Source: Paraspadella gotoi
Taxonomy: Eukaryota > Animalia > Chaetognatha
DNA length: 53,646 nucleotides
Assembly (NCBI GenBank): GCA_051294375.1
Contig: CM119268.1
Span: 740,324 to 793,969 of the forward strand
Direction of reading: 5' to 3'
The notes beneath the pieces are model-generated. The model made no database searches. It saw only the letters and a list, made by a program, of their open reading frames with translations, and had not been told where the DNA came from. The translations under genes and the position numbers were made by a program. This document shows positions 408-53,646 of the stretch, piece after piece. The first letter of the stretch is position 1. Each line of letters begins with the position of its first letter.

Positions 408-660
408 TGTAGATAAGGCGCTTAGTGGGCTGAAGATGACTATCCGTAACTACTAAAATTCCCTCTAGCACCCATAGAACGGGTCCTGGGCTTGGAACCA
501 GGCTTCAGGGTTTGCCAAGCCCCCAAGGGGGCTTTCGGCCGTCCTCACTCTTCCCGCAGGGTAGGTACCGGCTTGGGATTGAACACAGTACCTCGTGGTC
601 ATGAGCTGATGCCTTTACTCAATGAGCCACCGGGGTGAACCTAAGCAATGCCCGACTACA
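408..660 (-). mobile_element. SINE family 1 (tRNA-like head with CAT anticodon loop, twister-like core)
   Basis: Minus strand reads CCCCGGTGGCTCATTGAGT (A box) ..AGCTCATGACC.. GTTCAATCCC (B box), then GAGGACGGCCG..CCTGGTTCCAAGCCCAGG..CTTCAGCCCACTAAGCGCCTTATCTAC; homologous copies at about 20955, 21835, 32470, 40836 and 53039. Confidence 0.75.
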
Positions 661-746: not shown

Positions 747-3700
747 CTTGATGACAGAAGCCAAGACAAGCAGTCAAAAACGCGACGCCGACGAATGAAT
801 CAACAACAACAATGAAAAGAACCGAAACGACGAAAATAAGGATGGAATCGACGATGAAAATTACGAGTTTTCGAGAAACTAGGGGGAAAAATANNNNNNN
901 NNNNNNNNNNNNNNNNNNNNNNNNNNNNNNNNNNNNNNNNNNNNNNNNNNNNNNNNNNNNNNNNNNNNNNNNNNNNNNNNNNNNNNNNNNNNNNNNNNNN
1001 NNNNNNNNNNNNNNNNNNNNNNNNNNNNNNNNNNNNNNNNNNNNNNNNNNNNNNNNNNNNNNNNNNNNNNNNNNNNNNNNNNNNNNNNNNNNNNNNNNNN
1101 NNNNNNNNNNNNNNNNNNNNNNNNNNNNNNNNNNNNNNNNNNNNNNNNNNNNNNNNNNNNNNNNNNNNNNNNNNNNNNNNNNNNNNNNNNNNNNNNNNNN
1201 NNNNNNNNNNNNNNNNNNNNNNNNNNNNNNNNNNNNNNNNNNNNNNNNNNNNNNNNNNNNNNNNNNNNNNNNNNNNNNNNNNNNNNNNNNNNNNNNNNNN
1301 NNNNNNNNNNNNNNNNNNNNNNNNNNNNNNNNNNNNNNNNNNNNNNNNNNNNNNNNNNNNNNNNNNNNNNNGATTGTGGGCGTATTGTCGTTCGGGGCCT
1401 TTGCTGTATTGGGGCCCCTCATCGGTGAAACGGCGGGCTTATGAGGGATCTTATGAACATACGGACAAACCAGTAGAAAATGAAACCCGAGTCAGTAGGT
1501 CAACGGACTCCACTCTCTTACAAGATGAGAACATAGCCAGGGCCCTTAATGTACATTTCAAAATCAAAGAAATATGTTATCCGTGAAATGCTTAAGATTT
1601 ATAGTACAATCACTATTTGATGTTTTAAGTAACTACTTTATTTTTTATCTGAGCGTTAAGTGAGTTAGAAAACAGGCTATTGAAGAGACAGTGATAACAG
1701 TTGTGTGTTAGTGAAAACAGAAACCGTTTCAATATAAAGCAGTTCCCGTGAGTTTGGATCAGAGCTGGTAACAGCCATGTTACAGGCGGCGTTAAAAGCG
1801 CCCCAATCTCCTCTACTGCTAGGCCAACCACGGGCATAGAACCCCAGACCTTTGAGGTAGGGCCGCCGATCCCGTAACAGGACAAAACCGTCGAGATGCG
1901 ACTTTGGACGGATGATCCATCAATTGTCTCGTTGAAGGCGTCGACGCGACACTCGGCGAAGGATTCCGAGAGCATCGGAGGAAGAAAGACTCTCATCCCG
2001 AACATGCCGACGCTCTGAGAGAATCCGTAGAGGATAAAGACGAGAAAGAGTCGATGCTTGAAGAGACGTTGGAATATGGCGAAGGAAGTCGTTTGGGTCG
2101 GTGGATCATTTTCCGGAGTCAGAGGATCGGAAGGAAGGCTGTCGTCTTCACCTTCGTCTGTGGGATCAAGTTTCTCTGCATCGACTGAGTTCCGATTGGC
2201 TGAATTACGATCAGCTAATCTGCCATTGGCTGATTTCCCATCGGTTGTTTCGCGATCAGCTAATCTTTTATTGGCTAATTTTTCATTGGCTGATTTCTGA
2301 TCAGCTGATTTTTTGTTCGACGTCTTCCCATTAGCTGATTCCTGCTGGGCTATTTTCTGATAAGCGGATTTGTCAGCAGCTGATTTGACATCAGCTGATT
2401 TCCCATCAGCTGATTTCCTATCAGCTGATTTCTCATCAGCTGATTTCCCATCAGCTGATTTCCCATCAGCTGATTCCTCATTGTCTTCGAGTTCAAACAT
2501 AAAGATGGTAAAGAATAAAATCAAAAACCACAAACAACCGAGGAGCATCAACGAAGATTTCCAGCCCGACCTGGTCATAAAAAAAACTTAGCATTACATT
2601 TTAAACTTTCTTTCCTTTCTCTCCTACTCTTACTATACAACTTTGCAATACTGTTTTTTTTGGTCAAAATAAATCTTATGGTGCACTAAAATCCACCAAC
2701 CGTTCTTCAGCGGCCATTGGTGCCGGAGGCAAGTCATTCGCTCCCAACCCTAAGGTTCTGGGGTTCTGCTCTGGTGGTCGCCTCATAGAGGGACCGGCGC
2801 GCTTAACCCGCCTGTAACATGGTGCTTACAGCCTGTCGAATAGCTCAGGGACTGCTTATATTGAACGGGTCTGTCATTAACTCATAACAATAATTACTGT
2901 CTCTTCTATCTGTTTTATGTTCACTTATTTAAATTTGTATAGTTATGGAAAATTGTGAAATAAATTAAACTAAGTATAAAACTTGAAAAATAACTAGTTG
3001 TAAAAGCCAATTCCTGTCAAAGCGTTTGTTATGCATATTGCATTATTGCATAATCAATTAATCATTAGAACAGCTACAAATGTTATCAGTTAATGAATTT
3101 AAGTCGATACGGCGCAACAACTAATAGCCGTTCTTTGTTAATATACAGTAATATAACTTCAAAAACTTTTAAAATCTAACCTGGTGATAACCAAGTCGGT
3201 TAAAAGCGGAAGAACCATCATTCCCAACGGAGCCCCGCAATTGGAGATTCCATAAGCAAGGGCGCGATACCTGATCGTTGCCCGGCCTGTGAAGTGAGTT
3301 GAAAAATAACTAGTTGTAAAAGCCAATTCCTGCAAAGCGTTTGTTATGCATATTGCATTATTGCATAATCAATTAATCATTAGAACAGCTACAAATGTTA
3401 TCAGTTAATGAATTTAAATCGATACGGCGCAACAACTAATAGCCGTTCTTTGTTAATATACAGTAATATAACTTCAAAAACTTTTAAATCTAACCTGGTG
3501 ATAACAAGTCGGTTAAAAGCGGAAAGAACCATCATTCCCACGGAGCCCCGCAATTGGAGATTCCATAAGCAAGGGCGCGATACCTGATCGTTGCCCGGCC
3601 TGTGAAGTGAGTCAAAGTTTAGTTTCTCGTGAAACAAGGATTCTAAAATCGAAAAGTTCTCGTATGGTGGACTAAAAATCCACCAACCGTTCATCAGCGG

Positions 3701-6700
3701 CCATTGGTGCCAGAGGCAAGTCATTCGCCTCCCAACCAAAGGTCCGGGGTTCTTGCCCGGTGGTCGCCTAGCAGTAAGAGGGACGGAGCGCTTAACCCGC
3801 CTGTAACATGGTGTTACAGCCTGATCCGAAGCTCATTGACTGCTTATATTGAACGGTTCTGCACTAACACATAACAATAATTACTGTTCTCTTCATCGGG
3901 TTCGAACTCTGGTCTGAATGGTCATTGCAATAGAATGATAGGCCACAGTGGTCACTTATTGAAATGGGCACGCCAAGTGAGGGGAGACAAATTGAAGGTT
4001 AGTTTACATTGTGTTTATATTAAGTTTGAATAAATTATACTTAGGTTATATAATTTACTTATAAGTTTAGTTTCTTATTTGTCCTAATTCAACATTATAT
4101 ATTTTTGTAGTTTTTAACTTGCACACTTGCTTACTTGCTACTTGCTTGCATCATCATCTGTCATTTGGTCTTCAACTTTCTATCTAAGATTGGAAATTGT
4201 TTTTTTCTCAAAATGTTGTTCCTATTTATGCTTTATTACAACATGGTTCTAGGATTATAAGGTTAGAGTTAAGTTTTTTTACATGTTAGAATGTTTGTTT
4301 TCCAAATATTTATTTGAGAGCAGTTGAGCACGAATTTGAATTCAATAATTATTTATGGCACTCAAGAAGAATAAAGATGAAACTTAGTTTTGTTTCATTT
4401 GCGATAATATTGGATTATCTAGAGCTCGCGTTAAGAAGCGCTTCACCTTAAACCTAGGACTAAGCTCTGACGAAAAAAGCCAGAGGTTTTTTTAATATAT
4501 TCTTTTACCGGCCAATGTAGAATGATGGCAATATTGCTATTGTTAAGTTTCAAAAAAATCCGATCATAAATATAGAAAATATTAACCAAAATCTTCGGAA
4601 AATCCACCCCTTCTTTGGAAGATTTTCGCCATAGAAGAATTTTCCCGAATCTGACTCCCGGTTGAAAACTCTTAGAATTCCGAACGTAAGCTCCTCTTTT
4701 ACTTTTACTTTAAATAAAAATTTCACCAAAATGGACTAATTCACTTTACCATGATCGTTTTCATATTAAAATAACTAAATAAAATGTAAAGAAAAATTTT
4801 GAGAGCCCTTCAGACATATGGCTATCGAATTCCTGAATTCGAAGTTTATTGTAAAATCACAACATGCCTTAAATGCGTTTATATTGTAATGAAGTGAGAA
4901 ATCCCTTTATTTATATAGAAAAATTGAGATGAAAATTTTTTCCTGAGCAGACCAGTCCATTTAAATTTGATGGTTTGATATCAAAATGATGGTTAATCAT
5001 AAAGAGAAAAAAAATGCGAGCCCTTCAGATGCAAACAGGATCTGAATCGAGTCTTTTTACATCAATTGGGGATGTGCATCGTTTCTAAACTATTTAGTAT
5101 TTTTAAATGAATTTGGTACCGATCGATAGGAAATTCAAAAATATCTACATACAAAATTTCATCAAAATCGGATAATCCGTTCAAAAGTTATGGCAAAAAA
5201 ACGATCTCGAAAATCGCGCTTCGAATCGATCAACTTTCGCTTAAAATCGAACTCGTTTTGATCCAATAAGGATTGAACTTCGCGTAGTACTAAGCTTTAA
5301 ATCGGTAATCGCGATTAGGCGCAATCCGGCCTCGTAAGAGTAATTGAAGAAGCGAAACAAGGAAAAGAGGTAATCATTAGAAAGGTAAATGATAAAAATA
5401 ATAAAATTTAACAGAATATGTAAGATAAATCATAAGAGAACAAACAAGTTATCAATGCAAAGTATAGCGAGTGATATCGCCAGCAAAATTACTATTTAAC
5501 TAACGTCAATTTAAATTTAATATCGTTAATTCAAGATCAGGAATTAAAGATTGAGAATTCACTACGTCACTTCACGATTAATTTTTCATTTTTGAATCAT
5601 TTTCAATTTGACGAAAATTGATTTGACTATGATAACATAAAACTATTATTAAAAGAAATGATTGATTTACAAATTGATGAAATGAATAAAATTAATTAAA
5701 CTAATAACGAGACGATGGTTTAATATTTAAATTTGTCATATTCTGAATCCTTATTTTATTATAAATAAGTTTGAGCAAACAATATCGGATTTGCCTACAA
5801 TAATTTAGTGCCAATCAGCTAAAAAGTATGCAGTGAAAAAAGTATCAAGTTGAAAAAAGTATGCAAGTTGAAAAAAGTATGCAAGTTGAAAAAAGTATGC
5901 AGTTGAAAAAAGTATGCAAGTTGAAAAAAATTATTCAAGAGTATGCAATTTAAAAAAGTATGCAATTTGAAGAAAGTATGCAAAAGTATGCCAATTTGAA
6001 AAAAATGATGCAAAGTATGCAATTTTAATAAAATGTATGCAAAAGTATGCAATTTGAAAAAAATGTATGCAAAATATGCAATTTTAAAAAGTATGCAAAA
6101 GTATGCAATTTCAAAAATGTATGCAAAAGTATGCAATTTAAAAAATTTATGCAAAAGAATGCAATTTAAATAAGTATGCAAAAATATCATAAATAGGAAA
6201 AGTATGCATACTTGAAAAGTATGCATACTTTGAAAAAGTATGCATACTTTGAAAAAAGTATGCCTACTTTTTTGAAGTATGCATACTTTTTTCAAAGTAT
6301 GATACTTTGAAAAATTATGCATATTTTAAAAAAAGTATGCATACTTCAAAAAAGTATGCATACTTGAAAAAAGTATGCCATACTTTGAAAAAAGTATGCA
6401 TATTTTAAAAAAAAGTATGCATACTTTTTTGAAAGTATGCATACTTTTCAAAGTTAGCATACTTTTTTCAAAGTATGCATACTTTTTTTCAAATTGCAAC
6501 TTTTTTTAAATATCCTACTTTTTTCAATCACGTCACGTCAATGAATGACTAGCATCGCATCAATGAATACAATCATCGCATCAATATGACTATCATCGCA
6601 TCAATGAATGATTATCATCCGATCAATGAAGGACTTCATCGCATCAATGAATGATTATCATTGCATCAATGAATGACTATCATCGCATCATCATTTGGTT

Positions 6701-9700
6701 ATTCATCGCATCCATCCTTCGGTTATCATCGCATCAATATTGGTTATCATCGCATCAATATTTGGTTATCATCGCATCAATATTTGGTTATCATCAAAAG
6801 TAGGCTCGATCCTATTGCTTTTAAGATTAATAATTAATGTCTCTTCAAGAGATAAGATAAAGAGACTAACAAGGGACAAAACGACGCCGAGAACGCCAAT
6901 ATCACGGGCGTGAAATTCAAAACATTTTATACAGACCGCGTTCTAAAACGTAAAAATACGGTGAAAGCCATGTTGAAATATGGTATTTATCTGGCCCGGA
7001 TCACGCATGATCAATGCTTATTTTTAATTGATGTCCTCATTGGATAAACTACGTCAACCATTTCAATACAGACCGGAACGCGCTTTAAAAAAGCTTTTAG
7101 CGTGCAAAAACTTGATATCCTTTCTATTTGCTCTAAATTTAATAAGCTCTCTAAATTTACCCCCGCGCTCTACCTGAAACGATGTAAAAACAATACAGTT
7201 TCTTTCGAGTCTTAGAACAAAAAAAAATTGAAGGCTTGACATGCAGTTTTCACCTAAAAACCAGTTCATTTGATCTTTATCAAGCATTCAAATTTTATCT
7301 AGTAGAGAAGACAATAAGCTATCCGAAACCGTACTGATTTGTATGATTTGTTCTATTTTACAAAAGATCAAGCAGGTTTTTGGGAAGGGAAAAAAACGGT
7401 CTGACCAGTTCATTTAAATACCATTTCTTGGGCATGAATAAATGGAATTTCGATCGCGCTCTACCTCCGTTGGCTTCCCAAGACGCCAAGCTTTCGAAAT
7501 CTACCCATATTGATATAATTTATATGGGCCTTGACTATGCAGTTTTGAATAGAGTGAAATATAAAGGAATCTTGATCGGAACTTCGATTCGAACGATGCG
7601 CAAGCCCTACGATCAATTTTTATCGGGAACTTTTCCCAGGACCGTTTATATTGTTTGTAGTCAGATTTGAACGAAAATCTCCATTGAAAANNNNNNNNNN
7701 NNNNNNNNNNNNNNNCAAAGTTTAGTTTCTTCGTGAAACAAGGATTCTCTAAAATCGAAAAGTTCTCGTATGGTGGACTAAAAATCCACCAACCGTTCAT
7801 CAGCGGCATTGGTGCCAGAGGCAAGTCATTCGCCTCCCAACCAAAGGTCCGGGGGTTCTTGCCCGTGGTCGCCTAGCAGTAAGAGGGACGGAGCGCTTAA
7901 CCCGCCTGTAACATGGTGTTACAGCCTGATCCGAAGCTCATTACTGCTTATATTGAACGGTTCTGCACTAACACATAACAATAATTACTGTCTCTTCATC
8001 GGGTTCGAACTCTGGTCTGAATGGGTCATTGCAATAAGAATGATAGGCCACAGTGGTCACTTATTGAAATGGGCACGCCAAGTGAGGGGAGACAAATTGA
8101 AGGTTAGTTTACATTGTGTTTATATTAAGTTTGAATAAATTATACTTAGGTTATATAATTTACTTATAAGTTTAGTTTCTTATTAGTCCTAATTCAACAT
8201 TATATATTTTTGTAGTTTTTAACTTGCACACTTGCTTACTTGCTACTTGCTTGCATCATCATCTGTCATTTGGTCTTCAACTTTCTATCTAAGATTGGAA
8301 ATTGTTTTTTTCTCAAAATGTTGTTCCTATTTATGCTTTATTACAACATGGTTTTAGGATTATTAGGTTAGAGTTAAGTTTTTTTACATGTTAGAACTGT
8401 TTGTTTTCCAAATATTTATTTGAGAGCAGTTGAGCACGAATTTGAATTCAATAATTATTTATGGCACTCAAGAAGAATAAAGATGAAACTTAGTTTTGTT
8501 TCATTTGCGATAATATTGGATTATCTAGAGCTCGCGTTAAGAAGCGCTTCACCTTAAACCTAGGACTAAGCTCTGACGAAAAAAGCCAGAGGTTTTTTTA
8601 ATATATTCTTTTACCGGGCCAATGTAGAATGATGGCAATATTGCTATTGTTAAGTTTCAAAAAAATCCGATCATAAATATAGAAAATATTAACCAAAATC
8701 TTCGGAAAATCCACCCCTTCTTTGGAAGATTTTCGCCATAGAAGAATTTTCCCGAATCTGACTCCCGGTTGAAAACTCTTAGAATTCCGAACGTAAGCTC
8801 CTCTTTTACTTTTACTTTAAATAAAAATTTCACCAAAATGGACTAATTCACTTTACCATGATCGTTTTCATATTAAAATAACTAAATAAAATGTAAAGAA
8901 AAATTTGAGAGCCCTTCAGACATATGGCTATCGAATTCCTGAATTCGAAGTTTATTGTAAAATCACAACATGCCTTAAATGCGTTTATATTGTAATGAAG
9001 TGAGAAATCCCTTTATTTTATATAGAAAAATTGAGATGAAAATTTTTTCCTGAGCAGACCAGTCCATTTAAATTTGATGGTTTGATATCAAAATGATGGT
9101 TAATCATAAAGAGAAAAAAAATGCGAGCCCTTCAGATGCAACAGGATCTGAATCGAGTCTTTTTACATCAATTGGGGATGTGCATCGTTTCTAAACTATT
9201 TAGTATTTTTAAATGAATTTGTACCGATCGATAGGAAATTCAAAATATTATCTACATACAAAATTTCATCAAAATGGATAATCCGTTCAAAAGTTATGGC
9301 AAAAAAACGATCTCGAAAATCGCGCTTCGAATCGATCAACTTTCGCTTAAAATCGAACTCGTTTTGATCCAATAAGGATTGAACTTCGCGTAGTACTAAG
9401 CTTTAAATCGGTAATCGCGATTAGGCGCAATCCGGCCTCGTAAAGAAGTAATTGAAAGAGCGAAACAAGGAAAAGAGGTAATCATTAGAAAGGTAAATGA
9501 TAAAAATAATAAAATTATAACAGAATATGTAAGATAAATCATAAGAGAACAAACAGTTATCAAATGCCAGAAGTGTTAGCGAAGTGGATATCGATGCTCT
9601 CTTCTTTAAAATCTTCCTCGATCTCTAAAACGACGTCGACTCCTATTAAACCTAAACACTAAGCTTTAACCCTAACCATAAACCTTAAGCATTAGCCTAA

Positions 9701-18510: not shown

Positions 18511-21500
18511 AGAAACACTCTTCCACCGTCGAGAGCGACATGAGCCTTCGCCGACAAAGCCTGGCCGACAAGCCGATCCCCGAGGAGGACGAGTTGGCCA
18601 GTCACTTGACCTACAAGCCGCCAGTACCGAAACCGTGGGAGACCCTCGGCTCAGAGAAGGAGATTCATCCTCGGCCGAGAGATCCGCCGGGGAAGGCCAA
18701 GGTGAGATTGATTGATTAGATTGTTTGATTGATTGGATTTAATTTTTGATTGATTAAATTATTAGTGATTGGATTGATTGATTGATGGATTAATGTACTG
18801 ATATTCATTTTTTTATGAGTTTAGAGATTGAATATTAATCTTTTTTATTTGATTGATTGATAGGATTATTATCAGTAAATGCACTGATTGAAAAAATGAT
18901 AAGTGGTATTAATAATTAAAGTATTATTCTAATGGATTTTATTATTATATATTGATATACCTAGGATATTGATTAAATAATTGTGCAGTTTTTATTGAAT
19001 TTATTATCATTATTATTATTATCAATTACTTAATTAGTTATTTAATGGTTACACCACATCTACATTTCTCAGCTCCGCATATCCGTGACCCGCAAGCGAC
19101 GCCAGTTCGAACTTCCAATTAACTTCGGCGATCGATCGGCGGGCGACGCCAAAGACGCATACACGGAATGTCTCCCTTACGAGGATCGATCTTTCGAACT
19201 CAGAAGAAGCGAAGTGGACAGAGCCACTCAGGTGGGTACAACCAGTTTTTGTCCAGTAGTTTGGTCCGAGTCAATGGGTTGAGTAGTTTGGTCGAGTAGT
19301 AGATTTAGTGGTTAGGTTAGCATACTGGTTTTGTTTGGTCGAGTTGGTTGTTTGAATATTTAAGTAGGGCGGTTTCGTCAGTCATTTGAGTAGAGGAGCT
19401 TGTTTGAGTGGCTGGATCGAGTTGTTTCTGTTGAGTGTTTTACACAAGTGGAGTCGGGTGAGTAGTTTTGTCGGCAGTTTGATTAATTGATTTATTTATT
19501 TATTTAAGTAGCTTGGTTGAGTGACTTGGTTTAGTTGTCAGGTCAAGTACCTAATATCAGGATTTAACTTGACCTCGGCTGATTTCAGTGTTTCGCCCAG
19601 TTTTTGCAGGCTTTTATCAAAGTCAGAGAGAAATTTGTAATTGTTTTTTAGTTTCCCTTGTAGACTAATAAACTCTGTTTTTACGAGTTTCCAATGAACT
19701 TTATTACAAATAAATAAACTAATAAAACTTTACTATGCATTTTTCTTAATCGTTGGATCTCGTGTTAAAACATTTGGCACGGGCAACATTAGGAATGCGC
19801 GTCTCCGCTGGCATGAAGAAAAAACATTCTTCACAAGTTTAGTCAATTGTTTTGCTAAGTTTTTTGGCACAATAGCTAGATCAAGTAGCTTGCTTGAGTA
19901 GTTTCATTGAGTGGTTGAGTTGAGTGATTTATTTGATTGATTGAGTTGATTGACTTTGCAAAACAGTTAAGTTTATTGGTTGGGCCGAGTAGTTTAGTCA
20001 GTGGTTTGGTTAAGTGGCTTGGTAAAGTTGTCTAATCTAGTGGTTGCATGGTTTAGTCAACAGTTTTGGAGATTGTAGTTTGGTCGAGTAGCTTGAGAAG
20101 TTGAGTTAGTAGTTTGATCAAGTGGTTTGGCCGAGTAGTAGATTCTGTTTTAAAGTTTTTATTTTGAGGCAGTTTTTTATCGGCATTTTCTGTTAATTTG
20201 TATTGGTCTTTCACTGTAATTTGTTCAATTTATAACTTACTTATTAAGGGCAATAGAACGAGTCTATTGGTTACAATAGAAAAAGCATTAAAACGAAATA
20301 TACAGGGACTTCAATTTGGAGTGATACGAAAAAACTTGTAATATAATCGAAATGAATTACAATCAGGTTATTAATTTTTTTATACTAATAGAAAACTATT
20401 AAACTGTAATTGTGAGCTTTCTAACTAATAAATGTCATAAAAAAATATACAGAGTTTTTTGGTATCGTTCCAGTTTGAAGTCCCTGTATTAACCAAACTA
20501 ATAAAACCAGCTATCAACCAATGGCCTTTCAGGCGGTGTCCAACGTGGCGGAATCAAGCGCTCAGACCGAATATCGTCATCCTCGTCATGCCTGCACGCA
20601 GTATTTCCCTCGCGAGCTGGAGGAGAAAGATAGAGAGAGAGAGGCCGAGTCGACTGAGCTGGCTAAAGCGATCAAGAACTTAGTACCTAGGTGAGAATGA
20701 GAGAGAGAAAAGAGAGGCAGAAAGGCTTTTCCTCTCAAACCTTCAACTCCATCCAGATTCGAAGCTGCTCTTCAGCAAAACGAAATCCTTGATGTCTTCC
20801 ACGAGGATTGGCTTCGACTCGCCGACGACGACGGGACATTCGGCTCAAAGTCGAACAACAACTTGAAGGAATATCAATCCTTCACTGACCTCGTCTTTTC
20901 AAAGGATAAGGTCATCACTTGCATAGACTGGCATCCCACCATTAAGGGTAAGTTCGTAGCGGACATTACCCAGGTTCTCCCTGCTAATCGATCTTCGCTT
21001 GCCAACCCGTGGCTCGTTAAGTAAAGCCATCAGCTCATAATGAAACAGTCCAGAGTTTCAAGTAAAGTTTAAGCCTAGGACCCTTTCCATGGCTGGAGAC
21101 TGGAGAGTTCAACTCGTTAATACAATTAAATTATCAAATTAAATAGTAATAGTAAGTCAAATTACCATGATTGGACTAACCGCATACGAATTTAAAAAAA
21201 AAAATTACCCATTTTTTTATGATCAATTTAATTTCAATATTTTTGATAATTTTCGTCTCAATGGTTATAGCCGTTACAAAGATCAAACATTATTTTGTAA
21301 TATGACTATGAAAGATTCTTTTGGACAACCCAAACAGTCAGGGCGCATTTCTTTCCATCCTCCTTGCAGACCCGTCTTTCTTTCACGATGGCTCCTTTCT
21401 GCTTGCACACCCGTTCAATGTACTCATCCATCTTCAAATATTCCGGAGCCGGCTCTAACCACCTGCAATGGAGTTAAATCAATCAATCAAACAATCTTTT

Positions 21501-24500
21501 GAATCCTAATTATGTATGCACTTAAAACTAACTCATCTGAAAGAGAACAGACTGCATGTCCTCCCGGTTTGACAACATCCAGGAAAGAATCCCATCCATC
21601 GATAGGAACGTGACCAGGGGCAAACGCTCCCGCCATCATGACCAAGTCGTAATGATCCTTCAAAAAAAAATCCCTTTTATGCTTAATTATGTAATGGGTA
21701 TAATCAATATCAAAATTATCCATTCTTTCAATAAAAACATCTAATGTGAGCTACTTAGGGCTTCCATCTCTTTTTACAAAAAAATTGTTGGACCCTGTGT
21801 GATTGTGGAAAAGGAGCTACGTGGGTTGAAGAGCAATGGAACGGGTCCTGTTCTTGGAACCAGGCTTAAGGGTTTTCCACACCCCCAAGACAGGTTACAG
21901 CCGTCCTCCCAAGGTATGCACTATTTGGGATCAATCAAGGTACCTAATGGTCATAAGTCAATGGGCCGGGATGTGAGGCATCTCCCGACAGTTGGCGATC
22001 AGGGCTTTGGACCTGCAGTGACTACCCCATATCACTGGAGTGTTTAAACTGTTTATGCCGACACCATCACAATTAACCAGCATGACCGAGAGGGGATTGA
22101 ACCTCGCACTCGCGGTTCGTAAGCGAGTACTAAGCTGTCCAAGCTAATGAGACGAGCTGTGATAAATCGGGGAATTAAATATTGTATTCCACACTAGCTA
22201 ATCATAGAGATAATACAAAATTAACAATGTCCAATTCCATACTTTCTCAACGGGCAACTTTGCTCCGCCTCCGATAAAACTGACAAAAGTTTTATCATAG
22301 ATTTTTTTCTCTTGGGCGATTTTGAGCATTTCTTCTGAAGCATCAAGGGCGTCAACAGAAATAGAAGGATTTAGTCCTGCTTCGAGGAGACTCTCAGTGA
22401 GAAACCCAGTTCCTAGAGAAAAATTGGGGTCATAAATAAAAAGAGGATATGAAACCTACAAAAAATTCAAATGAGTTACCAGTGGGTTGGGTAATAATGA
22501 TATAAAATGCGTGACAGTTTCTATGATTATGTTACCTTGTTAAAATGGGTTAGAATAATAAATGAAATATTAACCAATAAATTTGTTTTTACATTTATTT
22601 TCTGCTTCAATGAAACAATCAATTAAAAAAAAATGATGCTTAATGATTACCTGCGGCCATATCAATTATTTTTCCCTCATTACGCTTTAACTATTTCCAT
22701 TATAAGAGTTCTACAGATTTCGGAGTGTGACCTTATTATATCATGCAAATCTTTTTCATAATCTTGAGCCCAAGAACTGGTCAGCGCGCGAGCGTTTCTT
22801 CTTTTGATTTTCAAGAGTCGACACTCGTTTATAATTAGTCGACTTGTGCATTGTTTTACGCTGCTATCACTTTACAATGACGATTACCAGTTACTTAAAA
22901 GAAAGTCTTTATTACTATTACACTATTTTTTTGACGAATAACAACTAGAACAAAAAGTGGTGAAAAATTTATTGGGAGTCTTTCTGCACGACCCAGACTA
23001 TAAGATCGTTTGTCGTGCAAGAGAATTTTTCAAACCACTGGGTGGTAACTCGTCCTCCTCTCTTAATTGGCTCCTTTTCTTTGACACACTTTCTGGGCAA
23101 TGAATTTTTGCCGAATCTGGAAATATTCGAGCGTCGTTTCGCAACAACCTGTGAATGAGTCACATTCTCATGAAAAAAGAAACAGAACTTAACAGAAAGG
23201 AAAGCAAATAGAAAACAACAAATTAAAAAACACTAAATAGATCTAAACAAAATGAAAAATAACACTAAAAGTGCAACAAACAAAATTTTTAAAAAGCCTC
23301 TAACAACTAAAAAACCAAAGAAAAAAAATACAAAGAAACAAAACTAAAAAAAACTAAATAAAATACAAACCAAAAACAAAAAACAAAAGCAAAAAAATAA
23401 ACCAAAAAATAACCAAAACAAAATTTTTCCCCACTCGAATTTAAGATCAAAAAGAAATTCACTTTTTGGTGATGGAGCAGACTGCATGTCCTCCGCTGGT
23501 TTGACCGCGTCCAGAACAAAGTCCCAACGTCGAGAGGCACGTGACCCGGGACAAAAGCACCCAGACATCAGTCGCTCAAATCGTAGGACTCCTACACATT
23601 TAAATTTTAATCATGAATTCAGAAGCACGCGATCCAATAGTTGGCTCTGTTTAAAAAAAAAACTATGTTCTTTTCCCGCGGAATTTAAATTTATTTATTC
23701 TTTTGTTAGCTGCAAAGTGTAGAGCCGGAGTGATTAAAACCTAAACCTTATGACGATCAAGTGTTCTATTGCATGATGGCATTAACTTGTTGCTTTGGGC
23801 TATGGAACGCTGCATGATGCTCCATGTCATTGGCCGCGTTAAACCTAGGACGGTTCTCCAAATAATATGCATAGGAAGGAACTGTTAGAGAACTCGATGA
23901 AAATAAAACTAGATTTCCTAAAGATATCGTTGTAATAAGCCCGAAGCTAATATTACTAAATTGTTTAATTTTGATTTCATTAAGGATTCTATAGATTTAT
24001 TGGGTTATTATACAATTTTTAAATTGTTTTGAAAAATTAAACTATAGATTCAGCATGGATGATGAGTTACGTTTTGTTTTTACCTTCGCAATATTGTGTG
24101 TACTAACTATTAACTTCAGCGCGATAAACCTTAACTTTATTTTTAAGCTCAATATTAACGCTAATATTAAACCTCAAAACCATTCGAAGATAACAAAGTT
24201 TTATTTGATACAGAACAAAGCGATTTTTTTTTAGTAGAATTATAATTGTAACAATGTACAATGTAATGTACATACTATACACTACTTTTTAACCGAATCT
24301 ACATCAGCGCTAAAGTAAGTCCGCAAATTTTATTAAACAAATTTTATTTATAACAAATAAATCATTTCAAATACTACGATAACTGCTTACTTTCTCAAAC
24401 GGCAATTCGCTCGCGCCGCCGATGAAAGAGACAAAAGTTCTCTCGTAAATTTTTTTTCTTTGGCGATTCTCAACATTTCTTTGGATGCGTCTACGGCGTG

Positions 24501-25427: not shown

Positions 25428-27474
25428 GAAATCCGATCAAGAGACAAAAATCTCCAAAAATAAAAGAAAATAAAGCCCAGAAAGCGAAAGAAGAGAGAGA
25501 GAGAGAGGAGAGAGAGAGCTCAAACGAAACGCGAGAGAGCGAGTCAACTCACCCGCGGCGAAATCTACGATCTTCGTCCCCTCTTCCGGTTTGACCGTTT
25601 CCATGACGACGGCCGCCACGTTGGCGGGCGTTCGCCACCCGACGTCGTTCATGTCGGTTTCGTAGTCGGTCGCCCATTTTTCGTAAAGATCTAGAGTTTC
25701 TTCTTTAGTTTTTCCGTCGGCGACAGCAACTTGAAAGTTTGCCGACATGTCTTGTAAATCGTTGGGTCGAAGATTCGGAACTGAAGTAACCATGTGAGGG
25801 AGGGGAAAACGTGACGCTTTAGGACGGCGAGAAGGAAAAAAGCACTTCATAACGGATGTACCATGGGAAAAATATATGGTAGAATTGTACGTTGTAATTA
25901 TTCGGGCGCTATTTATTTGGGAGAAATTAAAATCAATATAAAACGATATGCGGCATCTCGAACAAAACCTCTTACGTTTATAAAATCGGCTAATAAGGAA
26001 AAATGATTTTTCCCTTGCGAAGTTCGTGACCGAGAGTAAGGCAAAGAGAAAAAGCCAGCGTTGGAACGAGCATCTCGGCGAGACCGGAAGCCAATACTGC
26101 AAACCCCGGAGAAAACGACCGATGTGATCCAAAATATTATTTTTTCTTTGAATATCTTTCAAAAATGTTTGTAATATTTATTTTTGGAGATATCCGGTTC
26201 ACTAATCATAATTGAATTCAAAACTGAATAAACTATGAAAGCAAACACGTTTAATAAAGTCTTGACGGGTCTAGTTAAGGGGTGAAACTTAGAGGTAAAT
26301 TTACCTGATTAAACTGAGCAAAGTGTTTCTGAAATTGGCCTAAGGTAAAGAAATGAATTTTTCTTAATTAAATAGGCAATTTCTGATCAAAATATTTGCT
26401 TATATTTTATTTAAAGATAAATAAAACAATATATTTTATTTATTGTTTTAAATTTCGTTATCAACTAATATTTTTTAATTGTTTTAATTACTATTTTAAG
26501 CCAAAAATACTTTCCCCAGATGGTATGAAATATGATTATCATAGTAGCATGGCATTAGTTCTGTAATCTACTGGCTACTACCAGAACCAGAACCAATAAA
26601 TTTATTAAGAAGATTAATTTATTGATATTAATTATTAATTCATTAATTAACAGAAGTAAAGAAATTAGTAATAAAATGAGGATGCATACATTTAAAGAGA
26701 TTTGCAATGTACGAATTCAGTTGTATCCTCGATATGACTGACAAGATTTAAAACCTCGTCAAAAGAATGATGTAACAATGTACCCAAGACCAAAGTCGCC
26801 CATAAATTATTTGTACTTATTAAAATGCGCAAGCTTACTAGAATTATTTGCAGAAATATGATATGGATTACTTCAATACCTCCCAAGGCTGATTATATTA
26901 AAAAAAATTCGAGCTCAATAATAGAAAGTTAAACTATCCTATGGATATAAATTTTCAAATATATTGTGTTTTTTTCTTTCGTTGTGTTTTTAGATTTGGA
27001 GAGAAAAAAAATTTTTTAACAACAATGACTTTTATTATGATTAAAACATACAATGTTTTGATGTTAATTTGCAATCTTTATCAGTCTATTTAAGTTTTGA
27101 TAATTATATTAATTTTTTGTTTCACAAGTAAACAGTGAGAAGGATGGAGGAAAGAGAGAGAGACAGAGAAATAAATGTTTCTTACAAAGAAATAAAAAAT
27201 AGACAGTGGTCAGTTTTGAGGATAGGGTAAGTTTGAGCAGAGAGAGAGAAGGTGGTGAGGAAAAGAAATAAAATTTGGCAGAGAGAGAGACAAAAGATGC
27301 AGAGGTCACAATTAGATTCAATACATTATACATCTTATACATTATTCATCTTTCTTTCTCTCTGCCAAATTTCAATTTTCTTTTCCTCACCACCTTCTTT
27401 CTTCTCTGCTCAAACTTACCCTATCCTCAAGCTGACCACTGTCATTTTTTTAATTCTTGTGGAAACATTATTCT

Positions 27475-27506
<32 letters not shown>

Positions 27507-29549
27507 CATCCCTTTCACTGTTTACTTATGAACAAAAAAATATGTACTATCAAAACTAAATTAGCACTGATAAAGACTTTGCAAATTTAAATCAAAACAT
27601 GTATGTTTAATCATAATAAAAAACATTGTTGTTAAATTTTTTTCTCTAAAAATCCAAAAAAGTTTCTTCTATTTTTTCTTCATTTAACAAAGATTTTTAA
27701 CTCAAAAATAAAAAATGCCATCTTTGAAAATTCTGAAAAATGTTTTATCTTAATTAAAAAACAAACTTTATAATGGACTCAAACCCCTGTCACCAAACTT
27801 GGTTAAATCTGAATAAATATTTTTAGCTATTAATTTTATTTTACAAAATTATTTTGTCTTTCATTGAAAAATATTTCTAAAATTATTTGGGCTAAAACCA
27901 ATTGAATTTCAATGTTGAGCAAATTAAAGTTTTTATATCTGATAAAGATTTTGTTTAAAAAATTAATACCGAAAAAATATCCTATTTTGTAATTTTTTTA
28001 ATTTAAATTTAATTTAATATTATTTGGTTTTAATTATTGAAAAAAATATTTCCCCTTTTAAATCTTAGCAAATTAGATCATAAGTTTGTCAGTTATATCT
28101 TAGTTTTAAAGCTCCTCTTCCTCAATTAAAAATTGCCTACTTTTATTTCAGTTAACTACTAGGTAAACACAAAAATTGTCTATTACCTATTAAGAAAAAA
28201 ATTTTGCCTAAGTTCACCCCTTAGTCTAGTCGTGTTACCCCCCAATTCCAAATCTTTTACAACTGCAATACTTCACAGACTTTATATCTTTAAAAAATTT
28301 ATAATTTTACTGTAATAATACATTTTTGTCAATCAACGTTTCATTAAACATATTTAAAATAGACACTTGAAAAGATATTCAAATAAAATAATGAACTTGT
28401 TGAAGTTGAAACTCCAGTAGTTATTTTTTTTTTCAGATTTGGAAATCTGTTCTTTGACGGACTCTTTGCTGCAGGACCATAAAGAAAAAAAAAACACAGA
28501 AAAAAAGTATTTCGGGCCGGCAAGAACTTTTTCGAGTCGATAAACGATCTTTTTAAAACGTACGAGGTTTTGTTCGAGACAAGTCACGATCAGGCAAAGA
28601 AAATGCCGGTAATATATATAATAACATAATAATAATACGACTTCTGTTTTATTTCAGATGAGATTTAGTTCTTCTATCTTATTTACTTATTGTAGTAGTT
28701 TAAATTATTTCTCATATCTACTGATACAGTTTTCATAGAAGTCTTATTTACTACACGGTTAATTTAGAAATACTTTTAATAGAGTTTAATAATAATTTTA
28801 GTTTTCAATTTAAAGTTCTCGAGTCACATGTGATCGTTCAATTTAGTCTAGAAGGCAGAAAAGTCCACGAAAGTCCCAGTATATAGTATATATATAGCAA
28901 AGAGAGAGAAGAGCTTTTATTAACGTTGCATTATTCTTGAACGTTATTTTTTTTATAGATTCTTTGTTATAACTTTTAAAAAATATTGTTTTTATTGATA
29001 CCGTTGCTGCAAAAAAAAATATTTTCAGGGTATTTAACTATTGTGTTAATATCGTTTTTGTTATTTTTGTTGATTGTTTGTTGATGATGATTGTACTGAA
29101 TCAACCTCGTTCTATTCAAATAAAATCGATATTATTAATAAAAAAAAAATAGGATTTCAGGGTCCGTCTGAGAAAAAAAATTATTTAAGAAAAAATATAT
29201 TATATATAATATATATATATATATGAGAGAGAGAGAGAAGAGAGAGAGAGAGACGATCAATAAAAAATCTTGAGCAGTTAAGAGGCGATAGTAGTTGACT
29301 AACGTGACTAACGTAGCATTCAATCAAGAACAGCGAAGTAACGTTAACAAGGTAGCCTATTTAGAAATAGAATGTAGTTATTTCAACATTTTTCGATAAA
29401 AAAAAATTTCGACGCCAAAGATGAAAGTTTTTTTTTTTCTGAAGAGGTCCAGAGTTTCCCAACGCACGAAAAAGGATTGATAACCCGAGAAAAATGCTTC
29501 GAGTTGAAACTAGTTTAATCCGATCTTTAAGGTTCAGTTGTGCTGAGAT

Positions 29550-29580
<31 letters not shown>

Positions 29581-30338
29581 GAGTTGGGATTTTTGTATTT
29601 TTTTTAATATTTATAAGTCAGAGAGTGAGAAAATGAGAGAGAAAGAGATGAGGAAATGTTAGTTTAAAACGTTTTATTTAATGATCGTTGTTCGGGTCCT
29701 GAAAGAGCCGGTCGGACTCTGCACCCGAGCACCTCCTCCTCATCATTCCTATTCCTCCTCCTCATCATTCCTCCTCCTCCTCTTCCCCCTCCTTTCCCGT
29801 CGATTAAGGGCCGAAGGCAAAGGTTTAACATTAGGTTCTTCACTCACTCTTCCTCTCTCCTTTCCCTTTACCAGCCCTCTCCCGAGATTACCTTTTTTGG
29901 CCTTTTCCGTTACTTTTTTAGTCGCCCGTCAGTTAGAGTGGCGCCCAATGTGGGGCTCGAACCCACGACCCCAGGATTAAGAGTCCTGTGCTCTTAAAAC
30001 TGTGTACTTAAAACTGTATACTTAAATCCGGGCAGCTCTGAATTTAATTCAATTAGTTCATTTAATTTAATAAAGTACCAAAATAGAATTGAGAAAATAA
30101 CAGTGCGAGGCTGAGGAGTATTTATCGAGGAGGACAAAGGGATGTTATCGAGGACAAAGGAATATTATCGAGGAGGACTAAGGGATATTATCGAGAATAC
30201 ATCAAACGTTTTAAATGAATACATTTTTGAAATCACCAATTTCACCAATCTCCTATTTGGTTTATTTTAAAGTTGATTTGAATGACCCTTTTTCCTAATG
30301 AAAGTCAAGAAAGAAAAAGAGAGGGAAATGCTGAAGAA

Positions 30339-32159: not shown

Positions 32160-35100
32160 AACATTGTCCTTTTGTCTTCAGCATCCAAGAAACGCAGGGC
32201 GATCGATCATCCTTAGAAGGAGCCAAGCATCACGAAGGGGAAGACGACGAGCTTGGTGATTCCTCCTACGTCAGCGGAAGAGTCAGCGCCTCAAACAAGC
32301 AAAGGATGCTTACCAAAGTGAGTTTAATACAAGGAATTATTTTCTTTAGATAAGCATACCAAACTGAGTTTAACCCATGCCTCGAAAAAGAAAAAAAAAA
32401 GTTTTCCTTAACAGAGAATGGTCACAACAGCATTGTCGCAATAAATCTCGATTAAAATGTCGCAGTATATTTGTAGTCGGGCATTGCAATAAGGTCACCC
32501 ACCTATAAGCAAGATACCTTCAGTCGTTTCCCGGTGGCTCATTGAGTAATACCATCAGCTCATGACCATCAGGTACAGGGATCGACCCCCAATGGTTCCT
32601 ACATCTAGTCTGCAGGAAGCGTGAGGACGGCCGTAAACCGCCTTGGGGGCCTGGAAAACCCTTAAGCCTAGTTCGAAGCCCGGAACCCGTTCTCTGGCTA
32701 CTTGAAGGGGTTAAAGAATTTGCGGATAGCACTCTTCAGCCCACCTCGCGCCTTATCTACATATTAACACTGCCACACCTCTAGCTTCATTCATCCCAAG
32801 TGTCACATTCCAGCCACAAACCTTACGATTTCCCTCTGCGTTGCCAAAGGGAGACCGTCCTAAGGTAACCGCGCCAGTGACAGGTGGCGTTACTTAGGGT
32901 AGGAAGCCCTTAAAGCTAATAGTAAGATGACCCGTCCCAATGGACAACACAGGCAAGACGACTGTTACCATCAAAACTGAATCAACTTAAAAGTTTCAAT
33001 TAATTAATTAATTAAGGTTTCAACGAAGTTTTATCTCGGAACTGAAGACGGCCATTTGGTCTACGTCGATTGGAAACCAGTCAAGGATAATGATACCGGG
33101 AAGATCTCCACTCCCAGGGCGACATTTTGGAATTCCTTCAGGTAAGAGATGTAGGCGAAAATCTTGCTTAAAAAAAAATTCAACATTTTTCTAATAGAGA
33201 TTCCGTTCGAATCTGACTGCCCCAACTTTACAAACGAGCCTGCAAGAAATTCCGGTAGAAAACAGTTGTAAAAACACCGCGATTCCGACAGCTTTGCATC
33301 TCAAGAGCTCGTTCCCTTTTTTCTTGTGGCATTTGATGAAATTTTACTATCAAACAAGCCAGGGGAAATGGACTACTCGTCTCCGGAGGATTTTCATACC
33401 TCATTTTTACTATAGAAATGAAAGGGAAATTTCACTTTTTTAAAAATTACAAACGAGATTAGGGTATGTTAGCATTATAAATGGTACTTTGAATGATGAG
33501 ATTCCAAAAGCCTTGTATCCCTAGAGCTCGTTCTATTTTTCTTTTTATTATTGACAAATTTTTTCATATTAAACCAACATGGTAAAGTGAATTGGTCCAG
33601 TTTTCATCGCGAAATTTTTATTTAAAAAGAAATTAAAAGGAAGGTTAGAGAAAAAAACTTATTTTTCCTAATATCTTTTGAAGGAACAAAGATAAAGGGA
33701 TGGCAATAGTACCAAAATGAAGCCATAATCATAGGCACATACAAGATACAATTTTAGAATTATTTTGGCTGAAATTCTTTACAGGGTGAGTGTCAAACTA
33801 AGTCAAAATTATAATTAATTTTAAAACTAATGACACCCCATAGAAATAAATAAAAATTAAATTCTTTTTAATGATTCTGAAAGAAAAAAAGCTAAATTGT
33901 ACTCTAGTAAAACTTAAAAGTTTTTGGATAAAGAAAATGTAAATTTTTTGTCACTTAATAATTGCTTGTCTGATTTTACAAGCATGCTTACAAAATTCTA
34001 CAAAATATTATTCACCCCATCGCAGTCTAAGTATTTATCTTTCTTTTCCACCAGCAAAAAGTAAACATTATCTTATTTTAGAGAACAGGGACGTTTACTG
34101 AAAGGAGCCAGAAGATGTTCAACTTCTTCACTTTAATGTCAGTTTTTAATAATAAAATAGGCCAATTTTTTTAATTACTCAACTTTCACAGCTTCACAAG
34201 ACATTAACACTTTCACAATATCCCAATGTTAATGTAATGTATTATATTTTTTTACCTAGAAATTATAAAAGAAATAGAAAGTTGTGGATTCCTTTCACTC
34301 AAAGGGAAAAAAAATTTACTAGCGGAATTATAAGTTTGTAAGAGGCAGTCAGAATCGGCGAAAATCTTATAAGGCAAACATGTTGAAAAAAAGGGGTGGA
34401 ATTTTGATGGGTTTCCTAAGATTTCTCCACAATGTAAGGTCCGATTAAAGCGAAACTTGAGATTTACAATATTCCCGTCATTCCACATCCATCGATATAA
34501 AAATATAAGAAAAAAGCCACTGGCTTCTTTTTCTATAGCGGCTTCCTATGAGATGGCACTAAATAGATCTCTACTCCGAGGGCGACATTTTGGAATGCCA
34601 TNNNNNNNNNNNNNNNNNNNNNNNNNNNNNNNNNNNNNNNNNNNNNNNNNNNNNNNNNNNNNNNNNNNNNNNNNNNNNNNNNNNNNNNNNNNNNNNNNNN
34701 NNNNNNNNNNNNNNNNNNNNNNNNNNNNNNNNNNNNNNNNNNNNNNNNNNNNNNNNNNNNNNNNNNNNNNNNNNNNNNNNNNNNNNNNNNNNNNNNNNNN
34801 NNNNNNNNNNNNNNNNNNNNNNNNNNNNNNNNNNNNNNNNNNNNNNNNNNNNNNNNNNNNNNNNNNNNNNNNNNNNNNNNNNNNNNNNNNNNNNNNNNNN
34901 NNNNNNNNNNNNNNNNNNNNNNNNNNNNNNNNNNNNNNNNNNNNNNCCATTCAGGTAATGAGATGGCACTGAATAGATCTCTACTCTGAGGGCGACATTT
35001 TGGAATGCCATTCAGCTAATGAGATGGCACTGAATAGATCTTCACTCCAGAAGACATTTTTATCCTCTCTCCCCTTTCCTCCCCTTCTCCTCATCCCCCT

Positions 35101-53038: not shown

Positions 53039-53092
53039 AGGGGGTTATAGAAGTTACGGAAAGTCATCTTCAGCCCACTTAGCGCCTTATCC
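53039..53092 (+). mobile_element. SINE family 1 3' end after N gap
   Basis: AGTTACGGAAAGTCATCTTCAGCCCACTTAGCGCCTTATCC matches the tail of the 408-660 copy. Confidence 0.65.
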
Positions 53093-53646
53093 ACAGTATA
53101 TTTCCATTTTATTTTTCCTCCTATAAAAAGAACCGTGTCTAAAAAGCATGTTGAGATTGAATTTCACGAAATAATGGTTAAAATATAAAATTAAAGTCTT
53201 TTCTCAACTAATGAAGCCATTTTTGAAAAAATAATTGTAATATTTTCTTTACCATCATTGTTTAAAATTTTTTGGGGAAAATGCTTTAAAAGGGGCTTGA
53301 AAAGTATTTGGTCAATCAAGATGAAATTTAGCATACACTGTTAACCCATCTACCTTTATTGATTCATGCCATAACAAAAATTATTGATAACTATTTTGTG
53401 CATAATTTACTTTTTAAAAGAATCTGTACAGGATTTATCCTCCAGGATGTGACTACACTATTTTTAAAAAAAAATTATACTTAATTACAAAGAGCACCTA
53501 GTTGTGAATATAATTTGTTGGGAAATTTTTAGGTTACCTCTACAACTCCATTGATAATACCATCAATGCAGTGGATTGTACCTTATCCAGCAAGTTGTGG
53601 ATGCTATTGTGGACCCGATAGATGTAATAGAGGCTTGAAATTTTAA

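Follow-up and report, generated by a model that had tools for sequence, protein, structure and literature searches.

A twister-like module with a palindromic P1 in two repeat families with a tRNA-like segment from the chaetognath Paraspadella gotoi

Organization of the family A repeat

The stretch analyzed here, 53,646 nt of contig CM119268.1 of Paraspadella gotoi (assembly GCA_051294375.1, positions 740,324–793,969; hereafter the window), is rich in repeats and holds short, dispersed coding pieces, a WD40 repeat among them. At 7769–7998 it contains a 230-nt unit of a high-copy repeat, designated family A, which holds a twister-like module starting at 7875. An earlier description made from the letters alone (the sequence-only reading) had proposed here, downstream of a tRNA-like head, a permuted twister-like module whose mini-P1 is palindromic. 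The letters that it quoted for 7875–7948 are found there, and the repeat, which it took to begin at the tRNA-like head, starts 34 nt upstream of it and ends sharply at 7998. The letters common to the family, and their depth, come from short-read contigs of 4 runs on 7740–8030 and 4 runs on 7716–8330 (run X1 in both); nine public runs cover part of the region, and none of them is listed as RNA. The unit is organized as follows:

7769–7998, plus strand: full copy of family A with TA...CA ends; contig depth steps at both ends in 4 runs, and the flanks are backed by short-read contigs
7766–7768 (left) and 7999–8001 (right), plus strand: 3-bp target duplication TCG; chance of a 3-mer match, 0.026
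7769–7802, plus strand: leader of 34 nt, upstream of the tRNA-like part and as abundant as the remainder of the repeat; U3-like in a long terminal repeat (LTR) model
7771–7777 with 7785–7791, plus strand: leader hairpin
7791–7799 with 7954–7962: leader–tail stem, closing the tRNA and twister domains; pair probabilities of at least 0.93 for 7 of 8 scored pairs
7803–7873, plus strand: tRNA-like segment, Gly (CCC), with an A-box-like motif at 7810–7821 and a B-box-like motif at 7853–7863
7875–7891, plus strand: twister 5′ half, with P5a (7875–7880), AA, P2b (7883–7886, A7884 bulged), G7887, A7888 and the CGG strand of pseudoknot T1 (7889–7891)
7892–7897, plus strand: palindromic mini-P1, AGCGCU in the copy at 7875 and GGCGCU in ca. 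99 % of family depth
7898–7905, plus strand: UAA (cut predicted at 7898/7899), P2a (CCC) and the conserved GC belonging to pseudoknot T2
7906–7924, plus strand: P3 hairpin, 8 bp
7925–7929 with 7938–7942, plus strand: P4, damaged in the copy at 7875 and of 5 bp in the family
7930–7937, plus strand: loop L4, UCCGAAGC, followed by P5b at 7943–7948

Searches with BLAST and nhmmer located the other copies of family A in the window:

3663–3895, plus strand: copy inside a 98 % duplicate of 7716–9593, not independent
2677–2908, plus strand: full-length, decayed copy with a duplication TCT (3 bp) or ATCT (4 bp), depending on the end register
1681–1862, minus strand: copy lacking the 5′ part, with many indels

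The modules noticed earlier are thus present at 3770–3844, ca. 2783–2856 and 1740–1822 (minus), the first of them inside the 98 % duplicate (3613–5479 and 7716–9593), which adjoins an N gap. The copies at 3770 and 7875 were consequently counted once, leaving three independent family A insertions in the window, one of which lacks the 5′ part. A further candidate at 40374–40480 was a weak match (nhmmer E 0.11), absent from the later copy search and unconfirmed.

Summed contig depth, a figure that is not equivalent to copy number, marks family A as very abundant. In the 7740–8030 contigs it rises from 0–60 to 10^4–10^6 at 7769 and falls after 7998 (4 runs), and in the 7716–8330 contigs it amounts to ca. 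0.3–1.3 million in the repeat versus 6–61 in the single-copy flanks. Beyond 7998 the flanks are unrelated (loose-end agreement 0.41–0.43), the end of the family being sharp, and the junctions of the insertion at 7769 match the contigs without substitutions. None of the joints listed (15 of 23, on 7716–8330, 4 runs) bridges this insertion as an empty site would, so that the length of the duplication is not fixed by that route. Two more short high-depth repeats lie in the right flank, at 8094–8177.

Family A starts with TATGG and ends with TTCA, contains no TTTT in the three sequences scored and has no A-rich or tandem-repeat tail. Its tRNA-like segment is likely an RNA polymerase III (Pol III) promoter: ARAGORN predicts a tRNA-Gly(ccc) on the family common letters at a relaxed threshold only, and the head yielded no tRNA from ARAGORN at default and no Rfam tRNA match. 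The leader hairpin (7771–7791) pairs TGGTGGA with TCCACCA, letters that resemble a primer-binding site and a tRNA 3′ end, which we take to be of the Ala type; no polypurine tract follows. Published internal parts of Helenus retrotransposons begin with similar letters (PMC10886601; statements on cited papers refer, here and below, to the parts covered).

Family letters and predicted fold

The letters common to family A depart from those of the copy at 7875 at several positions. In the contigs of 4 runs, G occupies 7892 in ca. 99 % of depth, so that the mini-P1 AGCGCU described earlier, which is indeed self-complementary, reads GGCGCU in the family and pairs with itself by including G-U. There is also a G at 7941 and 7942 in 84–99 % of depth, plus a further G in 56–90 %, and an extra T after 7879 in 32–49 % (indel table), which appears in loose ends as well. 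In the family, CCUGA/UCAGG forms P4 (5 bp) and AGCAGU/ACUGCU forms P5 (6 bp); the 8-bp helix AGCAGUAA/UUACUGCU is private to the copy at 7875 and absent from the family letters. With a 5-bp P4, a 6-bp P5 and both pseudoknots, the common letters suit, by their sequence, a type-P5 twister better than the copy at 7875 itself. Pseudoknot T2 is present as GC:GC (GC after P2a and in L4), and among the variants listed for the family A contigs none reaches 3 % in UAA, GA or the U...AAGC of L4. A general-base role is predicted for G7887, and the cut is predicted between U7898 and A7899, in agreement, as to position, with the earlier proposal.

On folding of the family letters, P3, P4 (5 bp), P5 and the 9-bp leader–tail stem form with high probability. 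The whole repeat is more stable than its shuffled versions (z = −3.4; 0 of 200 shuffles as stable), and so is the twister domain (z = −2.0; 7 of 200).

Within the family, the changes C7889T (0.3–10 % of depth) and G7933A (0.8–7 %) affect T1, but both are of the CpG type and the contigs carry no linkage, so that covariation within the family cannot be separated from CpG decay. For the same reasons, and because of its many indels, the CCA:UGG change that had been noted in the copy around 1790 is weak evidence.

Natural type-P5 twisters and a second repeat family

Natural type-P5 twisters from phages served as a reference. Those with a GGG:CCC pseudoknot comprise 44 loci, and 17 of the 20 tested match Rfam Twister-P5; those with CGG:CCG, as in family A, comprise 13 loci, with matches for 10 of the 12 tested, whereas an uncompensated pattern is matched at two loci. 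The presence of CGG:CCG in Rfam-confirmed phage twisters indicates that it is a natural pseudoknot variant. We aligned 36 of these sequences (29 of 48 GGG:CCC rows and 7 of 13 CGG:CCG rows), leaving out duplicates, non-P5 parses and several rows with a long P1 or a P3; P2 has 3 bp, with a G-C outer pair in 35/36, and the P1 linkers span 14–24 nt (36/36). Several of the phage contigs (L010/L011, L023, L024, L031–L034, L053) carry 2–5 type-P5 twisters spaced over a few kb, with a ribosome-binding-like AGGAGG after each; such clustering is already known.

A model built from the 36 phage twisters ranked first the segment 486–547 of the minus strand (18.4 bits, E 0.025), leading to a second repeat, designated family B:

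408–660, minus strand: full copy, TGTAG...CTACA, duplication TATA (within a TA run); tRNA-like part, GA-T1-P1 at 536–546 and P4/L4 at 485–502
32472–32761, plus strand: full copy, 4-bp duplication TATT; GA-GGA-CGGCCG at 32623–32633, then UAA ACC GC, and P4/L4 at 32667–32683
40832–41108, minus strand: full copy with a decayed twister module, 4-bp duplication AGGT
21812–21986, minus strand: partial copy that retains the tRNA-like part and the twister module
53039–53104, 20953–21095 and 34–64: further partial copies

Families A and B have no significant BLAST similarity (best E 0.078). Nevertheless, the parts of family B come in the same order: first a leader, then a tRNA-like part, presumably of the Met type, in which A- and B-box-like motifs occur (at the level of relaxed ARAGORN and motif searches), and last a twister-like module. 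Its ends are TGTAG...CTACA, with TCTCA in one copy; TG...CA is found in 3/3 full copies, one end being decayed. Target duplications of 4 bp flank all three full copies (chance 0.0086 each), and TTTT is present in 2/3 copies.

Covariation between families A and B

A single descriptor, composed after both families had been seen, fits the common letters of A and B with every helix complete, in the order P5, AA, G-bulge-NN, GA, T1, six-base palindrome, UAA, NNC, GC, P3, P4, L4, purine and P5. In both families P2 consists of 2 + 1 bp around a one-base bulge, T1 pairs at 3/3 positions, the P1 hexamer with itself at 6/6, P3 at 8/8, P4 at 5/5, and P5 at no fewer than 5. The letters that form these helices differ: for T1, CGG:CCG in A against GGA:UCC in B; for the first pair of P2, C-G against A-U, with A or C as the bulged base; the pair closing the P4 loop is A-U in A and G-C in B; and the palindrome reads GGCGCU in A and CGGCCG in B. 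When strands were exchanged between A and B, T1, P2, P3 and P1 were broken.

These sequence comparisons back the twister fold and the palindrome, and with them the permuted twister-like module proposed from the letters of the first copy; the covariation that had been suggested as a check lies between the two families of the window, in T1, P2, P3, P4 and P5. The short P2, once suspected to mark a disabled relic, has the same geometry (2 bp, bulge, C-G) in A and B, indicating a shared feature and not a sign of decay. The suspicion is further weakened by the phage type-P5 twisters, whose P2 of 3 bp closes with G-C in 35/36, and by the imperfections tolerated in P2, as in P1 and P4, of type-P1 twisters (PMC11662667), of which ca. 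2,600 are given in the supplements of that paper. The letters of P3 and P4 are similar to those of Schistosoma twisters (Table 1 of PMC8501958).

A descriptor made from published twister features, and composed after the sequence had been seen, matched only the sites at 3782 and 7887 in the window, compared with 0.0067 chance matches per window (300 Markov resamples).

Weighing the twister fold

Several results count against a twister assignment. In Rfam searches, another of the checks proposed, family A gave no twister match and no hammerhead match, at gathering or at E ≤ 10, and our 36-phage-twister model gave it 6.5 bits (E 7.8), misaligned. For family B, the copy at 486–539 has Twister-P5 as its best Rfam match, below threshold (20.2 bits, E 0.036; gathering score of RF02684, 37.6) and in an alignment that puts P3 in P1 columns, and the copy at 32472–32761 has no Rfam twister match. 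For the family A domain, the fold of lowest energy contains P3, P4 and P5 without the proposed P2, in a calculation that cannot model pseudoknots. The A-U pair that closes the P4 loop in family A corresponds to an essentially invariant G-C in known twisters (PMC5408937). The letters of family B come from four decayed copies, none intact, in an error-prone assembly, and A and B may share an ancestor, so that they are not fully independent trials.

Alternatively, the domain could be a further tRNA-like cloverleaf that has degenerated, or a fold arising by chance. With relaxed thresholds, ARAGORN places a tRNA on the twister domain in A and in 2/3 copies of B, and the stacking of P5 and P4 resembles that of acceptor and T arms. 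However, the loop has 8 nt and lacks a T-loop consensus, both pseudoknots are kept together with UAA, GA and GC and covary between the families, and Rfam favours Twister-P5 over tRNA for family B; we consider this explanation most improbable.

Taken together, a twister-derived fold is very likely present in families A and B, and the best natural copies are predicted, with good probability, to cleave. Judged by their sequences, these two abundant families carry a real, uncatalogued twister variant whose cutting is a prediction. No relatives appeared in the viral contigs or prokaryote genomes searched. The sole metagenome match was dismissed as a chance match beside a bacterial gene that, from its look, we take to be gyrase-like.

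The carrier of the module

A short interspersed nuclear element (SINE) is copied from a Pol III transcript, so that it starts near its tRNA head and has a variable tail. The sequence-only reading assigned the repeat to this class. On such an explanation, a Pol III SINE would be moved by an RTE-type long interspersed nuclear element (LINE) and the internal twister would be either active or a relic of a LINE 5′ end. The tRNA-like head, the high copy number and the loss of the 5′ part in one of three independent family A copies agree with it; moreover, the 5′ regions of RTE elements feed SINE bodies (PMC5786205) and carry twisters (PMC8501958; PMC7761336), which the P3 and P4 found here resemble (PMC8501958). 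Both families, however, have sharp ends without a SINE tail and a leader upstream of the tRNA part, conserved over 34 nt in A, and these features, together with duplications of 3–4 bp, disagree with target-primed SINE insertion. In addition, RTE twisters are of type P1 and lie at the 5′ end, in contrast with the permuted type-P5 form found here, cleavage 96 nt downstream of the start would strip the promoter from a monomeric SINE RNA, and no head-to-tail joint of family A occurs among the joints listed (15 of 32 on 7740–8030; 15 of 23 on 7716–8330). The SINE explanation is thus largely contradicted, and we regard it as very unlikely. Tandem arrays of the Sm-alpha type were set aside on the same head-to-tail evidence.

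Non-autonomous DNA transposons, with a tRNA–twister cassette captured as a passenger, would have fixed ends. Academ elements, for example, have YR...YR ends and duplications of 3–4 bp, and such an origin accords with the 3-bp (A) and 4-bp (B) duplications, the subterminal inverted repeat of A and the occurrence of solo copies only. Nevertheless, there is no terminal inverted repeat in A and one of only 5 bp in B, and, in two families whose leaders, heads and tails differ, the compensatory changes across the RNA fold suggest that selection acted at an RNA stage; this origin is therefore unlikely. A Helitron/HINE origin, considered for the hairpin and the inverted repeat, was dropped, given the position of that repeat 36 nt from the end and the target duplications, which were compared with the end features typical of Helitrons.

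The remaining candidate is an LTR. The TGTAG...CTACA ends and 4-bp duplications of family B match the solo LTRs of animal Helenus (PMC10886601), and family B is quite probably an LTR; by analogy, an LTR is slightly favoured for family A. Solo LTRs are common in Helenus and TRIMp3 (PMC10886601). What speaks against an LTR is that family A has TA...CA ends and, in its one well-confirmed insertion, a 3-bp duplication, versus 4 bp in animal Helenus; one published Helenus LTR starts with TA, and the parts of PMC10886601 covered contain no 3-bp duplication. Likewise, the window holds no two-LTR element, primer-binding site or polypurine tract, and TGG within 7 nt downstream was found in 0/6 end-bearing copies.

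The palindrome and a possible mode of action

Unlike the P1 stem of type-P5 twisters, P1 can form at most 1 bp within a monomer of these families. The central pair of the hexamer changes from CG in A to GC in B, and since neighbouring bases cannot pair in one strand, this change fits a duplex between two copies. The energy of the palindrome duplex is −8.3 (A) and −10.7 (B) kcal/mol versus +5.6 and +4.1 for the 1-bp hairpin. Among 71 chance-type pattern matches to short-P1 twisters in prokaryote genomes and phages, the linkers included no Watson–Crick palindrome and two palindromes with G-U, and none of the 71 combined a palindrome with a 4-bp P4. In hammerheads, one pair plus a palindromic tetraloop requires dimers (PMC7229834, PMC6765202).

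Our preferred reading is that a type-P5 twister-like module with a 6-nt palindromic P1 lies in the solo LTR of a small, non-autonomous and Pol III-driven retrotransposon similar to Helenus/TRIMp3, in which the ribozymes of the LTRs pair to cut, and the balance for and against it is about even. The repeats of the window provide the fixed-end unit (leader, tRNA-like segment, twister module and short tail) and a second family with compensatory changes. The full element, of which no copy was seen, would consist of two LTRs around a short internal part. Pol III would start within the 5′ LTR, at its tRNA-like segment, and, as family A lacks a TTTT stop, would read on through to the 3′ LTR, yielding one transcript with two twisters. 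The two palindromes are predicted to form a 6-bp P1 between copies, the halves swapping and both UAA sites being cut, and a lone copy (1 bp and a 4-nt loop) to cut poorly. The unit-length RNA set free (5′-OH, 2′,3′-cyclic phosphate) would then, on the analogy of plant LTR retrozymes, be circularised, reverse-transcribed and integrated by a Gypsy-type partner, and recombination would leave solo LTRs like those in the window.

The same LTR-like carrier might instead hold a twister acting as a monomer (1 bp plus tetraloop), which would set the RNA ends in place of a T-run stop, the palindrome being incidental or a helper. In known twisters P1 can be deleted without loss of cleavage (PMC5408937), and P1 length has no effect on cleavage in type-P1 twisters (PMC11662667); as P1 is dispensable there, monomers may cut here too, which tells against a need for dimers. 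The lack of TTTT in family A also agrees with a monomer, most Helenus LTRs having a T-run after the tRNA part (by eye, PMC10886601). Conversely, the hexamer is fully self-complementary, with a compensated inner pair, in both families, and the P1 tests used type-P1 forms with free ends and not a closed linker of 6 nt, the linkers of phage type-P5 twisters being of 14–24 nt (n = 36). We find a monomer rather unlikely, and we are evenly divided as to whether the dimer predicted from the palindrome matters.

A stronger version of the pairing model is more tentative still: the repeats may form a class of LTR retrozymes of animals, driven by Pol III and based on a twister that is an obligate dimer, which would fire only when both LTRs are in the transcript and so act as a full-length sensor that releases circular RNA. 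If true, a natural twister that depends on dimers would be described here for the first time, as would a link between TRIMp3 and retrozyme biology; the class would have been overlooked because its permuted, P1-less form scores under the Rfam models.

Other features of the window

Near the family A copies there is a 317-bp tandem duplicate (2983–3612). It and the 1.9-kb 98 % duplicate (3613–5479/7716–9593) differ mostly by single-base indels, and both are likely artefacts of an error-prone long-read assembly. An open frame of 320 aa (1625–2587, minus), with a hydrophobic start and ADxKS-type repeats, runs into the copy at 1681–1862 and gave only weak, compositional Pfam matches. Outside families A and B, there is a truncated tRNA-like piece at Rfam gathering score (29950–30001, minus) and a 670-bp foldback with arms 80 % identical (26987–27660), which resembles a miniature inverted-repeat transposable element.

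Comparison with known systems

Families A and B share with type-P5 twisters (RF02684) the strand order P2-GA-T1-P1-UAA-P2-GC-P4/L4, ending in P5, a 3-nt P2a ending in C, an L4 of the U-NNN-AAGC type and, in A, the natural CGG:CCG variant. They differ in having a 6-nt palindrome as P1, instead of the 14–24 nt hairpin of the 36/36 phage examples aligned, and a one-base P2 bulge, a P3 and a closed P5, with A-U closing P4 in A. The twister T-variants of Perere-3 (RTE clade) from Schistosoma mansoni likewise lie in an animal retroelement and have similar P3 and P4 letters (PMC8501958). Those, however, belong to type P1 and occupy an autonomous LINE's 5′ end, where target DNA completes P1, and have neither a tRNA head nor a permutation.

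As carriers, the non-autonomous LTR retrotransposons Helenus/TRIMp3 (Kojima 2024, PMC10886601) and Cassandra also have a tRNA-like Pol III promoter in a short repeat with a leader, and many solo LTRs; Helenus in addition shares with family B the TGTAG...CTACA-type ends and the 4-bp duplications. Most Helenus LTRs end soon after a T-run, whereas A and B have there a twister of 75–90 nt (PMC10886601). In the parts of that paper covered, the word ribozyme occurs once, in a reference title, and motif searches of its supplement, in which line breaks can hide motifs, returned no twister context.

The open-access papers searched yielded no twister in a SINE or LTR and no palindromic-P1 or dimer twister; Repbase, papers under subscription and the original alignment of twisters fell outside this search, and the A/B form may have been annotated before. 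Twisters are widespread, and the sole animal role that we found described is the trimming of RTE retrotransposon 5′ ends. The A/B twister suggests how Pol III LTR elements might define the ends of their RNA with no need for a terminator. Since Rfam misses this form, more of them may be present without annotation in the repeat libraries of animals, entered there as SINEs.

Plant LTR retrozymes (Cervera et al. 2016, PMC4918200) similarly have a self-cleaving RNA in the LTR, 4-bp duplications and solo LTRs, and a double cut and circular RNA have been proposed for them. They carry type III hammerheads, are found in plants and have no internal Pol III promoter described in the parts of that paper covered, in contrast with the twister placed here after a tRNA-like promoter. 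The dimer hammerheads of Penelope-like elements, amphibian retrozymes and Schistosoma Sm-alpha also have a one-pair stem and a palindromic tetraloop between two copies, and Sm-alpha joins a Pol III promoter to its ribozyme (PMC6765202, PMC7229834); they differ in their hammerhead fold and tandem arrays, no sign of an array being present here among the joints listed. The compensated palindromic P1, present here in a twister of two high-copy families, lends itself to a bench test of dimer action of the kind known from some hammerheads.

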